From Scenedesmus sp. PABB004 (taxonomy: Eukaryota), in NCBI GenBank assembly GCA_014905635.1, contig JABVCE010000020.1:248001-312000 (forward strand): DNA of 64,000 nt. Reading direction: 5' to 3'. The notes beneath the pieces were generated by a model, which ran no database searches, was not told the origin of the DNA, and worked only from the letters and a program-made list of their open reading frames with translations. Below, one piece after another: positions 28,053 through 40,960 of the stretch. The position numbers and the translations under genes were made by a program. How positions within the stretch are numbered: position 1 is the stretch's first letter; each line of letters opens with the position of its first letter.

Positions 28053-31000
28053 TCAGGGCGAGGGCGACGGCGGGCCCACGACGGTGTCGTTTTTCTTCGT
28101 GCAGCCGCCGGTGACGTCGCCCCACTTGCCGGGGCCGTCGCAGTTGACCTGTGGGCTGCCCAAATAGCCGTCGTCGCAATCGGCGGAGCAGCCGCCGTCC
28201 ACCGTCACCGAGCCCGACGTGCAGGTGGTGACCCACTTGCTGTTCGCCGGGGGCGGCGGGATGGCCGCGCCCGAGCACACCGCCCGGCAGTTGCTCGTGA
28301 CCTCGTCCCAGAGGCCGCCGGTGAGGCACGTCGCAACCACGGGGCCCTCGTAGCCCGGGTTGCACGACGCCGTGCAGTTGCTGCCGACCGGGGTGCTCGC
28401 GCACGCAAACTTGCCGTTGGTGATGCTGCTGCTGGGGTTGCCCGAGCAGCCTGGCGCGCGCGGGGCGGGGCGGCAGGCGCGAGCGTCGGCGGTGCAGCGT
28501 GGCGCGGCGCGGACCGCGGCGCGCGCGGCTGCAGCGCGCGGCGCTGCAGCGGGCGCGGCGCTGCAGCGGGCGCGGCGGGCGGCTCACTCGTGCGGGACTG
28601 CACGCAGGTTCCGTTCACGATGCCGCTCCACGTGCCGTTGCGCAGGCAGGTGATGTAGGGCGGGAGGGGGTTGGCAATGAACCCGCTGTTGCAGGTGGAG
28701 AAGCAGTCGTCGCCGGCCTTGTTGTTGCCGGCGCAGTTGAAGGCGGCGTTGGGGGCGCTGGGCGGGGTACCGCACACAGCGGACGACGCGACGCAGCTGC
28801 CCTTGGGCGCGGCCCACTTGTCGTCGTTGCCGCACGACGAAGACGGCTTGGACGGCGAGCCTGCAAAGCCGTCGTTGCACTCGGCGGTGCACGTCTGGCC
28901 GCCGCCGGTGATGTCCCCGCAGTCCCACTTGGCGTTGGGCACGGCGGGCGGGTTGCCCTTGCACGCTGCGCGCGGCGGGGCGGCGGGTCAGCGCGCGCCC
29001 TGCGTGGCGCGGGCCGGCGGCCGCACGCGCGGGGCAGCCGTCGTGCCATGGCGCGCGCCTCACCACCCGGCGCGTCGAAGCAGCTGCCGGTAACGTCCCA
29101 CGTGTCGGCCCCGATGCAGAAGGCCGAGGGCCCGCCGGCGAAGCCGCTGTTGCACTTGCCGAGGCAAATGTTTCCGACCGCCGTGGTCGCGCAGTTGCCC
29201 CACGCGCCGTTGGCGAGCGCGGGCAGGTCGGTGCCGAGGCAGCCTGCGGCGGCGAGGCGCGGCGCGAGGGTCGGCAGCAGCACCGGGCGCGGGCGCCGGC
29301 GCGCGCTGCGCCGCGCGGCCGGGCGCGGCGCGTCGCGCAGCGCAGGGCGACCGCCGCGCACCCTCTGCGCACACGCCCTGCACCGGGCTCCAGGTGCCGG
29401 CAAAGCACGTGGCCACGGGCGACCCGGCGGGAGAGCCGAAGAAGCCGCGGGGGCAGGTGCCGTTGCAGGTGCTGAGGTGGGGCGTGGAGGCAGGGCAATT
29501 GAACGTCGCGCCCGTGGGAGGGTTGGGCGGGGTGCCAGTGCAGGCTGCGCGGGGGCGGGGGCGGGGACGGGAGCAGCACGCAGGGTGGGCGGCGGCTCGT
29601 GCGACGCAGCATGCGCGCGTGCAGCGCAGCGCAGCGCAGGCTGCGCCGGGAGCAGGCGTGCGCGCGCGGCGTCGCTCACGGTCTGTCGACTCCTTGCACG
29701 CGCCCGTGGTGGCCGTGAACGAGCCGTCGGCGTTGCAGGTGGTCTTGGGCGCGCCCTTGAACCCCAGGTCGCACTTGCCGGTGCAGTCCTGGCCGCGCAG
29801 GACCTCGAAGCAGTCCTCGCCGGGCCAGGCGCCGTTGGCGGGCTGGTCGGGGAGCTTCTTGCCGGAGCAGCCTGCGCGCGCGCGGGCGCCGGGCGCGGCA
29901 TGAGCGTGGGCGCGCGCTGCCACCGCCGCGGCAGCCTCAGCGACGCCCAAGCGCGAGCGTGGCGCACCTGGCTTGCAGCTGCCCTTGACCGCCGACCAAA
30001 CGCCGCCCTCGTCGCACGTGATGCTGACGTCGCCAACAAGGCCGGCGTCGCAGACCGCCTCGCACGTGCTGCCGACAGCGGACTGGCCGCCGCCGCACGA
30101 AAAGCTGCCACCGGTGATGGTGGGCGGCGCCCCGCACACTGCGGCGCACAGCGAGGCGGCGAGGCGTCAGCGCGTGGCTCGGCCGCACCCCGGGCTCGGG
30201 TGGCGAACGTAGAGCTAGCAGCCCCGCGCCGTGGCGCACCTGGGATGGGTGTGCAGTCGCCCGTGACGTTGGACCACTGGCCGCCCAGGCACGTGGAGAA
30301 GAACGGCGTGGGCAGGTAGCCCGTGCCGCACGTGGACTGGCAGAGGCTGTTGAAGGGCGTGTACTTGCAGCTGCTGGGCCAGGTCTGGTCGACCGGCGGG
30401 TCCGGCAGCGCGGAGCCAAGGCAGACTGCGGTCGGTTGGGCGCGAGCGGCGCGGTGAGCGACGCGGCGAGCAGCACGAAGAGCACGCGCCGGAGCCAGCC
30501 GCGCGCGCGCCGACATCGCAGCCGCGCCGCGCCGCCCCCGCGCTCGCCGCCGGGGCTCACCGAACTGGGTCCAGAGGTCAGAGTTGAACGGCTGCACGCC
30601 CGGCTCGCCCGGGTCGGGCTTCCTGCCAAAGCAGATGGCGCCAATCGCGGGCGGGTTCTCGCTGGTGTCGGCAACGCCCGTCACGACGCCGACGGGCGAG
30701 TCGCCCGAGCAGGCGCCGCCCGGGTACGCGGTGAGGGGGACGCCGTTGTCGTCGAAGCTGCCAGTGAAGCCGTTGCAGCACCAGTCCGCGCCCGCCGAGT
30801 ACGCACCCTGCACCTGCTCCAGGGACGCCAGCAGGGTGCCGCCGTCGGAGGTCATGTTCCTGCAGGCCCCGGCGGCCTCAAACTGGGTCTTGAAGCGCTC
30901 GCCGCACAGCGCGTAGACCTCGGGGATGTCCGACGACGCGGCGGCTGCGCGGCGCGGCAGGGGCGGGCGCGGTCGCGCGCGCGGGTGGGCGCGGGGCCGC

Positions 31001-31554
31001 TGCAGCAGGGCACGCGCGGCGGCGGCGCCAGCACCAGCCCCTGGCGCTGCCGGGCTCACGGTTGCGGCAGACGCCCTTGGGCTTGGAGAAAAGGAACCCA
31101 GCCTTGCACTTGCACTGGCGCGTGCGGCCGGTGCCGGCGATGTACGAGTTTGACGGGCAGCAGTCGATGACGCCCGGCGGCGAGTTCTTGCTGATCACGC
31201 GCTTCATGCGGACGCCACCCACGGTCTTCCCGCACATGCACTCGCCCGTGCGGCCATTGCGGAACGAGTTGAGGCCGCAGCGCGTGCGGTCTGCGGTGGC
31301 GGCCGGGCGAGCGGCGGGCGCGGCGGCGGGCGGGAAGGTCGGCCGCGCCGCGCAGGCGTCGAGCGTGCGCGCAGCTGGCCGCCGCGGACGCGCCCCCAGC
31401 CTCTCGATGTCCCTAACACCGCGGCGCAGCGCCCGCCACGGGCTTGCTGCGGCCAGGCTGCGCGACCCCGGCACCCACTCTGGGCAGCGACCGTGGACGC
31501 GCCGCACAGCAGTGCGAGCGCCGCCACGAGCAGGGGTAGGTAGGAGCGCGCCAT
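28053..31554 (-). CDS. Secreted protein: signal peptide, EGF-like Cys-rich unit, Link (Xlink)-like module, nine six-cysteine Sushi/CCP-like repeats, short PSPSP tail
   Basis: MARSYLPLLVAALALLCGASTVAAQ; CCPSNSY..CKCKAGF..C; EVYAL..TQFEAAGAC..LASLEQVQGAYSAGADWCCNGF..AYP..AICFGRKP; repeats C..PP...NG.W.C......C...C..GF.G.P...C...G.W....G.C on phase-1 exons. Confidence 0.82.
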
Positions 31555-39200: not shown

Positions 39201-40960
39201 GCCGGCGCGCCGCCCCGCGCAGCAGCAGCGCCCGCGCCCGCCCGCTGCGCCGGCAGCACTCGCGCCCGCCCAACGGACCGACTGACCAACCGCCGGCCCG
39301 CACGCCCGCCGCTGCCCCGCGCGCAGACCGCGGCGTGGGCAAGATCAAGACCGTGTGCCCGCCGGGCAAGGTGAACGAGGGCGGCCTCTGCTACGACCAG
39401 TGCCGGCCCGGCTACACGTCGTTCGTCACGATGTGCCTGCGCAACTGCCCCAACCAGTACACCAACTGCGGCACGTTCTGCGTGCCGCCCGGCGTCAGCT
39501 GCGGCAACTTTGCCGGCGCGACGTACCAGAGCTGCGCGAGCCGCTACACGCGCAGCGCCTCGGCCGAGGCCCTGCCCGATTTCTACATCAACAACACCGC
39601 CGCCGGCTCGCCCATCGACTTTGTCGCCGATGTCGAGCTCGCGCGCGCGCAGCCGCTGGAGGCCGTCGAGCGCAAGCTGCGCGGCCACCTCACCAAGCCG
39701 GCGTGCACCACCTCGCTCAAGTGCTTCTGCCGCCGCGTGCGCACTGGGCTGGACTTTGCCAACCCGTGGGACAAGGACAGCTTCATTCGCTGCGCCTATG
39801 GCCGCGCCAACGTGGTCAAGTGCCTGCCCACCTTTACCTACGATGCCGCCCAGGGCCAGTGCGTCCAGTCGAGCAGCTCGGGGACGCCCGCGGAGACGGC
39901 GGGCGACGCCTGCGAGGACCGCAAGGACGGCGTGTATGCCGCGCTCAAGGACCCGCAGAACGTCAAGAGCGGCTACCTGGTGCGCGGGGGCCCCTGCGAC
40001 GCACGGGGCGCCGCGCGGCAGTCCCCTCGCCCCGCGCCTGCGCCTGCGCCCCCGCGCCAGGCGCCGCTCACACGTGCACTGCGCCGCCACCGCCGCGCGC
40101 AGGCGTACTACTGCAAGGACGGCAAGACGCTGCCCGACTGCCCTGCCGGCCAGTTCAGGAACGACGACGACCTGGAGTGCACCACGCCCGCGACCGGCAA
40201 GCCGCCCAGCGGCGGCACCGGGCCCGCGGCCATCCCCGCGGGCGCCACCACGAGCCGCTGCCGCCGCCTCGGCTGCTTCTGCAAGGTGCGCCGCCGCGCC
40301 GCCCCCTGCCGCGCGCCCGCGCCGCCCCGCCCGGTGCCGCCCGGCCGGCCTGCTGACTGACCCTCTCACTGCCCTCTGTCCGTCACCGCCTGCCCCGCGC
40401 AGCTCCGCGCCGACGGCAACTACGTGGACACGCTCGCGCCCGGCTATCAGGCGCTCAAGGGCAAGGGCGCGCGCGCCGCCGCGACCGCCGCCGAGGTGGC
40501 GGCCGACGACGGCGCGGCCCCCGACGAGCTCGCCTCGTTCGTCACAGCGAGCGTGCCGGCGGGCGCCAAGGACCGGCCGTACGCGACCTACATCCAGTGC
40601 ACGGGCGGCGTCGCGAAGCGCATCGCATGCGCCGCCGACTCCGAGTTCTCTCCGGCGAACAAGACGTGCGTGGTGATGCCGCCGACGAAGGAGGGCGGCT
40701 CCAAGACGCCCGACCCGAGCTGCAAGAGCCTCAGCTGCATCTGCGTCGGCGTCAAGAACGGCGTGCTGCTGCAGAACCCGGAGGACCCCACGGGCGGCGT
40801 GAACTGCCAGATGCAGCAGGCGATTCCCTTCTCCTGCCCCACGGGCTTCGCGTTCAAGGCGGGCCAGGGCTGCTATTCCGAGATGAAGGGCAGCCCCAAG
40901 CCCGGCGACAGCGACCCGTACGGCGACGGCAGCGCGCCCAAGCCCTCGCCCAAGCCCTGA
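33237..40960 (+). CDS. Very large secreted multi-exon protein: long amphipathic beta-strand-rich region, Cys-rich SYDRGAG/CYxxC repeat region, about four chitin-binding type-2 (CBM14/peritrophin-A)-like modules
   Basis: Signal peptide MARSYLPLLVAALALLLCASSVQA and about 20 exons joinable in frame. C-terminal modules CFC..G..FANPWDKDSFIRC......KC...FTYD...GQC, C..RKDGVY..YYC..CPAGQF..C, CFC..RADGNY..YIQCTGG....ACAADSEF..C and CIC..KNG..QNPED..NC..FSCPTGFAF..C. Confidence 0.82.

Follow-up and report, generated by a model that had tools for sequence, protein, structure and literature searches.

Two unrelated genes for predicted secreted proteins in a green alga begin in mirror-image copies of one 5' module

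How do two neighbouring genes that encode unrelated proteins come to begin with almost the same DNA? This question is raised by a head-to-head gene pair of the green alga Scenedesmus sp. PABB004, which lies in a stretch of 64,000 nucleotides (nt) of contig JABVCE010000020.1 (positions 248,001 to 312,000; the whole of this stretch is called the window below, and all positions are counted from its first base). The left gene, annotated as 'Svep1', and the right gene, HT031_005200, are divergent, and their start codons lie 1683 nt apart, the head-to-head arrangement of a bidirectional pair. An inverted repeat with arms of about 0.7 kilobases (kb) occupies the region between them and reaches into the first exon of each. 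We think it probable, although well short of certain, that a module comprising a putative promoter, a 5' untranslated region (5'UTR) and a phase-1 signal-peptide exon was duplicated in inverted orientation and was then homogenised by gene conversion between the two arms. The features discussed here are collected in Table 1.

Table 1. Repeat arms, exons, genes and domains of the window, with the strand on which each is read; GC, guanine plus cytosine content
Feature	Position	Strand	Description
Left arm	31514-32235	-	722 nt; upstream DNA, 5'UTR, start codon and initial 41 coding bases of the left gene
Right arm	32577-33277	+	701 nt; upstream DNA, 5'UTR, start codon and initial 41 coding bases of the right gene
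21-nt tandem duplication, left arm only	32157-32177		Sole indel between the arms (gapped alignment)
Unique spacer	32236-32576		341 nt; GC 66% vs 74% in the arms; not palindromic
Left outer tail	31468-31513	-	Remainder of exon 1 and identical donor GTGGGTGCCGG
Right outer tail	33278-33326	+	Remainder of exon 1 and donor GTGGGTGCCGG; homologous to 31468-31513
Left gene 'Svep1'	28053-31554	-	792 amino acids, 10 exons, ATG 31554, stop 28053; signal peptide, exon with eight cysteines, Link-like exon, Sushi-like modules
Left gene, exon 1	31479-31554	-	76 nt; signal peptide, phase-1 end; identical to annotated protein P0003
Left gene, Link-like exon 3	30561-30944	-	P0003 residues ~105-230
Left gene, Sushi-like modules	28053-30425	-	Nine, with six cysteines each
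Right gene HT031_005200	33237-40960	+	23 exons, ATG 33237, stop 40960; annotated 1652 amino acids
Right gene, exon 1	33237-33315	+	79 nt; signal peptide, phase-1 end; matches annotated protein P0001
Right gene, layout			Signal peptide, ~920-amino-acid beta-rich region (exons 2-17), cysteine-rich CY..C repeats, CBM14 modules at 39327-39979 and 40403-40960
Second inverted repeat	48857-49357 / 56189-56673		Arms of ~500 nt, inner ~385 nt 99-100% identical, ~6.8 kb between them

A repeat scan of the find_repeats type reported two inverted pairs, 31479-32156 with 32635-33312 and 32158-32235 with 32577-32654, which a gapped alignment merges into a single pair of arms. These arms are reverse complements of each other, with 700 of the 701 aligned bases identical and one 21-nt indel in addition; the sole substitution lies at position 32803 in the right arm and 31988 in the left. 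Each arm holds 660 nt upstream of its ATG. The original prediction, made from the letters of the window, had described near-perfect reverse complements with exactly these boundaries, each crossing an ATG and the start of a signal peptide, and in both respects the repeat scan and alignment agree with it. Its phrase 'one promoter' for both genes does not fit, as each gene owns a separate copy of an identical upstream sequence. By BLAST, the arm occurs in two copies in the window, the other matches being short GC-rich chance hits, and the spacer sequence is unique there. The spacer halves are not complementary to each other, since 298 of 1000 shuffled sequences attain the same self-complement score, and Rfam and tRNA scans of the inverted repeat gave no match. 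In a window with 69-83% GC per 2 kb, the spacer is the least GC-rich stretch (61-66%; the arms have 74%). Its AT-richest part contains a perfect palindrome of 14 nt, AGAGATCGATCTCT, at 32306-32319.

The exon models of the two genes came from an exon finder based on dynamic programming, for which the clearly coding blocks of the left gene served as the training set. The translation of the left model is identical to the public annotation, and the right model (1648 residues) differs from the annotated protein by four residues at one acceptor site; the annotation uses the same start codons for both genes. Each of the 30 introns opens with GTG or GTA and closes with CAG. In both genes, exon 1 ends in phase 1 and joins a phase-1 exon 2, so that the two first exons are phase-compatible with what follows them. 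The encoded N-termini read MARSYLPLLVAALALL in both cases, and 23 of the first 28 residues agree in a BLASTP alignment. Past residue 28, BLASTP of the left against the right protein found nothing significant (best other E = 0.12), which bears out the predicted non-homology of the genes beyond their common start; judged by their sequences, the two proteins are unrelated from there on. Both also end in short Pro/Ser(/Lys) tails, as had been foreseen.

What separates a recent copy from an older one that has been rewritten is the structure at the edge of the repeat. Near-identity stops sharply inside exon 1, at position 33277 on the right and 31514 on the left. Outside these points, the remainder of exon 1 and the beginning of intron 1, outer tails of 46-49 nt, can still be aligned with 36 of 50 columns identical (about 72%). 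The alignment score of these tails is 19, compared with 7.3 ± 1.4 in shuffled sequences, none of which attained 19 in 2000 trials. The first 11 bases of intron 1 (GTGGGTGCCGG) are identical in both genes, and their opening GTGGGT is found in 0 of the 29 other introns of the two genes. Farther out, no residual homology was detected: the similarity of the two first introns ranks 129th among 465 intron pairs, and the acceptor sites and exon 2 starts of the two genes are unlike. A search of the window for further copies of the signal-peptide exon found none, with many short Ala/Leu matches.

A sharp edge of near-identity flanked by older, diverged homology is the pattern left by gene conversion, and homology limited to one exon and its edges, with the remainder of the genes unrelated, is that left by exon shuffling; the locus has both. 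These observations suggest two layers, an older first exon common to both genes and a much younger tract of about 0.7 kb laid over it. A tract that ends within pre-existing homology would be the expected product of arm-to-arm gene conversion, and a single fresh duplication is disfavoured because it would not leave a diverged but homologous fringe. The original prediction had offered either a very recent promoter capture or conversion between the arms. Its common 5' module stands, and of its two options the sharp edge and the homologous fringe of about 50 nt speak for conversion of an older duplicate rather than for one fresh capture.

In the course of events that we propose, a module of about 660 nt of upstream DNA, the 5'UTR and a short phase-1 signal-peptide exon would have been duplicated in inverted orientation, and in each of two unrelated neighbours a copy of that first exon would have become spliced to the gene's own phase-1 exon 2. 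This duplication would not be brand new, because its outer ~50 nt have drifted apart to the degree given above. Later, a non-reciprocal transfer from arm to arm, driven by homology, would have restored the identity of the inner ~700 nt, in a tract that ends in exon 1. Crossing-over between inverted arms would flip the 341-nt spacer only, so the arrangement could be stable and both genes would remain intact. With identical cis-regulatory DNA, leader and signal peptide, both genes would be expected to be switched on together and their products to be secreted. The analysis establishes the repeat, its two tiers of identity, the gene models, the intron phases and the domains; that the arms act as promoters, that conversion homogenised them and that the pair is co-regulated we infer. 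The locus is best read as a snapshot of the shuffling of a first exon, in which donor and recipient would still be adjacent.

Independent sequence bears on both the reality and the age of the repeat. Five public sequencing runs, none of them recorded as RNA, contain parts of the stretch, each with 0.07-0.14 of the sampled words, and four of them were aligned; joints in run X3 with sides of 20-25 nt in GC-rich DNA were ignored as chance. Contigs from freshwater metagenomes, with about 97-98% identity to the window, join the right arm to the right exon 1 and intron 1 (32914-33391, 11 differences) and the spacer to the right arm (32232-32662), and the left arm is joined to the left exon 1 by a contig of 'organism A' (31469-31613, 1 difference). 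Between the related strain and this genome, the arm shows 12 differences in 502 bases and 11 in 477, compared with 1 in 701 between the two arms of this genome. This contrast within and between strains fits concerted evolution, as conversion might produce, and falls short of proof, since the junctions bridged in the related strain are those of the right arm.

Several points weigh against the history of duplication and conversion that we favour. The junction of the left arm with the spacer is covered by only 4 nt of one contig; contigs bridge the other three of the four junctions of the palindrome, and no record among the aligned runs spans the whole of it. In the related strain, only right-arm junctions are bridged, which qualifies the comparison of 0.14% between arms with 2.4% between strains. 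Gene models and annotation are the basis for the promoter, the transcription start sites and the assumed use of the two first exons. Constraints shared by signal peptides and splice donors could account for part of the likeness of the outer tails. Copies of the first exon were counted within 64 kb, and it could conceivably be a dispersed module used by further genes. Finally, the arms contain one ATG in the sense direction and eight in the antisense direction, where 4.6 are expected (P(<=1) = 0.05 by simulation), and this depletion hints that most of the arm may be a transcribed leader, which would place the promoter in or near the spacer.

The most serious competitor to duplication followed by conversion is a single, very recent inverted duplication without any older homology, in which the outer ~50 nt would be alike because signal-peptide c-regions and splice donors had converged. 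A lone substitution in 701 nt suits a very young copy, other young duplications are present in the region, and GC-rich signal-peptide codons are of low complexity, as the many short Ala/Leu matches illustrate. Convergence is nevertheless hard to reconcile with a tail score that no shuffled sequence attains, with an identical 11-nt donor whose like is absent from the other introns, and with a left gene that keeps its own diverged but homologous end of exon 1. The right gene, moreover, already carries the arm in the strain that has diverged by about 2.4%, so that a fresh copy would have to be the left one. We therefore regard this simpler history as unlikely.

One further alternative turns on what the two genes encode. 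The left protein matches the Sushi family (PF00084) with 69.2 bits over four stretches, against a Pfam cut-off of 20.7, and exons 5, 9 and 10 each pass this cut-off alone. Classic complement control protein (CCP) modules have four cysteines, to be set beside the count in Table 1. In the left gene, each of the eight internal exons is phase 1-1 and encodes about one cysteine-rich module (one or two). A layout of one module per exon, all in phase 1, is usually cited for animal extracellular mosaic proteins, and here it occurs in a Sushi/Link gene of a green alga.

The assignment of exon 3 is less firm. The Xlink family (PF00193) scores 24.0 bits on the exon and 22.8 bits on the whole protein, both under the Pfam cut-off of 27. 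Aggrecan link modules in the PDB match the exon with E = 5.6e-4, in an alignment around the motif LASLEQVQGAY...C..GF, and a structure search of the Atlas, with the Atlas's own model, gave Xlink clusters in 10 of the 10 matches listed, at template-modelling scores of only 0.42-0.47. An AlphaFold2 model of the exon made without an alignment was unusable, with a predicted local distance difference test (pLDDT) value of 41. On a Pfam score below the cut-off and two other weak lines, we call exon 3 Link-like and not a proven Link member; should the domain prove real, the occurrence of a hyaluronan-type lectin fold in a green alga would deserve attention of its own. Several of the nearest Xlink clusters in the structure search come from giant viruses (Nucleocytoviricota), beside vertebrate lecticans. 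Exon 2, with its eight cysteines, has no Pfam or PDB match. Among longer proteins, the only relative of the left gene was its own annotated product, and the Link-like exon has no relative in the metagenome contigs or viral contigs searched. In the main text of a Scenedesmus cell-wall proteomics paper (PMC11839794), the terms Svep1, Sushi, chitin and HT031 have 0 occurrences.

The right gene is a member of an old chlorophyte family of equal architecture, which shows it to be a genuine gene rather than something the repeat created. Three relatives, P0002 (from Edaphochlamys), P0023 and P0024, have a like layout, with a beta-rich region of about 900 amino acids, CY..C repeats and CBM14. The chitin-binding family CBM14 (PF01607) scores 32.7 bits on the last exon of the right gene alone, over its cut-off of 22.1, and 21.0 bits, slightly under that cut-off, on the whole protein; the scores of P0002 and P0023 are 72.7 and 44.8 bits. 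The domains originally predicted for the pair thus hold in outline: Sushi and, for the last exon, CBM14 lie over their cut-offs, and Link lies under its own, with two weak lines in agreement.

The model of exon 15, the largest exon of the beta-rich region, has a pLDDT of 94.8 and forms a long antiparallel beta-meander with a helix. Foldseek found no PDB match to this model at E <= 0.001, and a search of the ESM Atlas with the beta-rich region gave a best score of 0.82, the level of chance. Outer-membrane barrel walls and lipovitellin, the best candidates in VIA-align (Z 8.5-8.1), and the TamB beta-taco (Z 6.5) were set aside, and we name no fold family for exon 15 because these values are within the tool's background of 7-8. 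A metagenome contig of 50 kb, from a chlorophyte whose GC content is about 61%, carries two convergent paralogues of the right-gene family, which are 38-39% identical to the right protein.

In this second alternative, the repeat would be a selected device that keeps functional partners co-expressed, a Link/Sushi subunit for glycan recognition and a beta-rich/CBM14 effector or second binder. Link modules bind hyaluronan, and both they and the chitin-binding CBM14 recognise polymers that contain N-acetylglucosamine. The upstream DNA, leader and signal peptide are identical, and both proteins are predicted to be secreted, cysteine-rich, lectin-like and closed by short Pro/Ser tails, so that a functional tie between them is conceivable. 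Conversion between inverted repeats, however, needs no selection, and a second promoter-like inverted repeat nearby serves other genes. The pairing also looks young because the right-gene family is old and no relative of the left Link-like exon was found. On the one contig found to carry right-gene relatives, the head-to-head pair was not found: tblastn with the left protein gave no match in 43 kb, which is a weak test, with distant relatives and about 3 kb upstream of one copy, but one that speaks against a long-standing linkage. The headline of the original prediction, a candidate two-component system, is left unsupported by the lack of a left-gene relative, the lack of linkage on that contig and the presence of a second inverted repeat 16 kb away, and we hold a partner device to be distinctly improbable.

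A more specific form of this idea, which we put lower still, is that the mirror module was selected as a co-regulation device coupling a hyaluronan-type binder (Link/Sushi) to a chitin-type binder (CBM14) for joint secretion. Were it true, the pair might act in wall assembly or in the surveillance of surface glycans, for instance against the coats induced by giant viruses; chloroviruses are reported to form hyaluronan or chitin fibres on algal surfaces (PMC5408694). In a bolder variant, the arms would let the 341-nt spacer flip and so toggle a one-way promoter between the two genes.

A promoter within the AT-richer spacer, with the arms as long identical leaders, can also be considered without any partnership of the proteins, and at its extreme recombination between the arms would flip the spacer as a eukaryotic invertible switch. 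The low GC content of the spacer is in keeping with such a promoter, the deficit of sense ATGs is what a translated mRNA leader would show, and a pair of inverted 0.7 kb arms should readily support inversion. Yet the ATG depletion is marginal, the spacer has no TATA-like motif or other promoter evidence, and leaders of about 700 nt would be unusually long. No contig has the spacer in the opposite orientation, although the cover is too thin to tell. We consider a spacer promoter very doubtful.

Least credible of all is an assembly artefact, whether a fold-back or a chimera, or else a transposon of the foldback type whose terminal repeats abut two genes by chance. No single record crosses the palindrome, but a fold-back is unlikely: a substitution and a 21-nt indel distinguish the arms, the DNA between them is unique, and each arm runs on into a complete annotated gene, a different one on either side, whose splice donor is intact. 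The locus is internal to a contig of 737 kb, and contigs from other runs bridge three of the four junctions. A transposon has against it the two copies in 64 kb and the low repeat content of the genome (reported as 1.31%, PMC12571836).

The favoured history of an inverted duplication homogenised by conversion has parallels in several known systems. Human Y-chromosome palindromes and plastid inverted repeats have arms that are kept identical by arm-to-arm gene conversion. The locus described here resembles them in its inverted arms and unique spacer, in a near-identity that is best explained by intrachromosomal conversion and in that crossing-over would invert the spacer only. It differs in its scale of 0.7 kb and in arms that carry no whole paralogous genes; what appears to be homogenised is the 5' module of two non-homologous genes, that is, regulation and targeting and not the proteins.

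Targeting-peptide exons are known to have been moved by exon shuffling, as in the acquisition of presequences, under a rule of phase compatibility. As in those cases, a short phase-1 signal-peptide exon is joined here to unrelated phase-1 exons, and the left gene consists wholly of phase 1-1 modules. Unlike in classical exon shuffling, the donor and recipient copies would be adjacent and nearly identical, and the promoter and 5'UTR would have moved along with the exon. Head-to-head gene pairs, including the chorion gene pairs of the silkmoth, can be served by bidirectional promoters, and the present genes are likewise divergent neighbours, 1.7 kb apart, for which co-regulation would be expected. 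A classical bidirectional promoter, however, is one non-duplicated region, whereas here each gene has its own mirror-image copy, which reaches into coding sequence.

The closest published case that we found is a gene family of Schistosoma japonicum in which, according to its report, a similar core promoter and signal sequence precede different mature proteins (PMC3434034). As at our locus, different secreted proteins there have a common module of promoter and signal sequence that arose by duplication at the DNA level. The S. japonicum copies are described as dispersed genome-wide and flanked by repetitive elements, whereas the two copies here form a tight inverted repeat that bears signs of conversion, and the genome is reportedly poor in repeats. 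We found no published example, in open-access text, of a tight inverted repeat that contains only the 5' module of two non-homologous genes.

The locus may thus present a rarely observed state, the shuffling of a promoter and first exon with donor and recipient still adjacent and nearly identical. It also offers a concrete and testable case in which conversion would homogenise regulation and targeting and leave the mature proteins untouched. For algal biotechnology, the identical 0.7 kb modules could serve as a putative natural matched pair of secretion-driving promoters.

A repeat content of 1.31% is reported for the genome, which measures 39.8 Mb in 77 contigs (PMC12571836), and because of this low figure the inverted repeats seen here are not background noise. 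The neighbouring genes are also of extracellular type, encoding a subtilase and a leucine-rich repeat (LRR)/ephrin-receptor-like protein. The second inverted repeat of the window (Table 1) may be another duplicated promoter module. Because this promoter-like repeat lies only 16 kb from the first and further inverted duplications are present, the surroundings suggest a region prone to inverted segmental duplication, as a local habit rather than a purpose-built pair.

Each arm of the second repeat contains the motif TATATATTA amid DNA of about 78% GC, and the gene for the LRR/ephrin-receptor-like protein begins directly past its left arm. A third, direct partial copy of this repeat is found at 43034-43555 and is 93.7% identical to 56516-57034. 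The subtilase (Peptidase_S8) gene lies at ~44.0-47.7 kb on the + strand. Its 3' part has an inverted partial duplicate at 41621-43043 on the - strand, which matches 46245-48698 in pieces at 87-97% identity; this duplicate includes an (SP)n linker and a long poly-Asn/AAC run, and it lies tail to tail with the right gene, past the stop codon of the latter.

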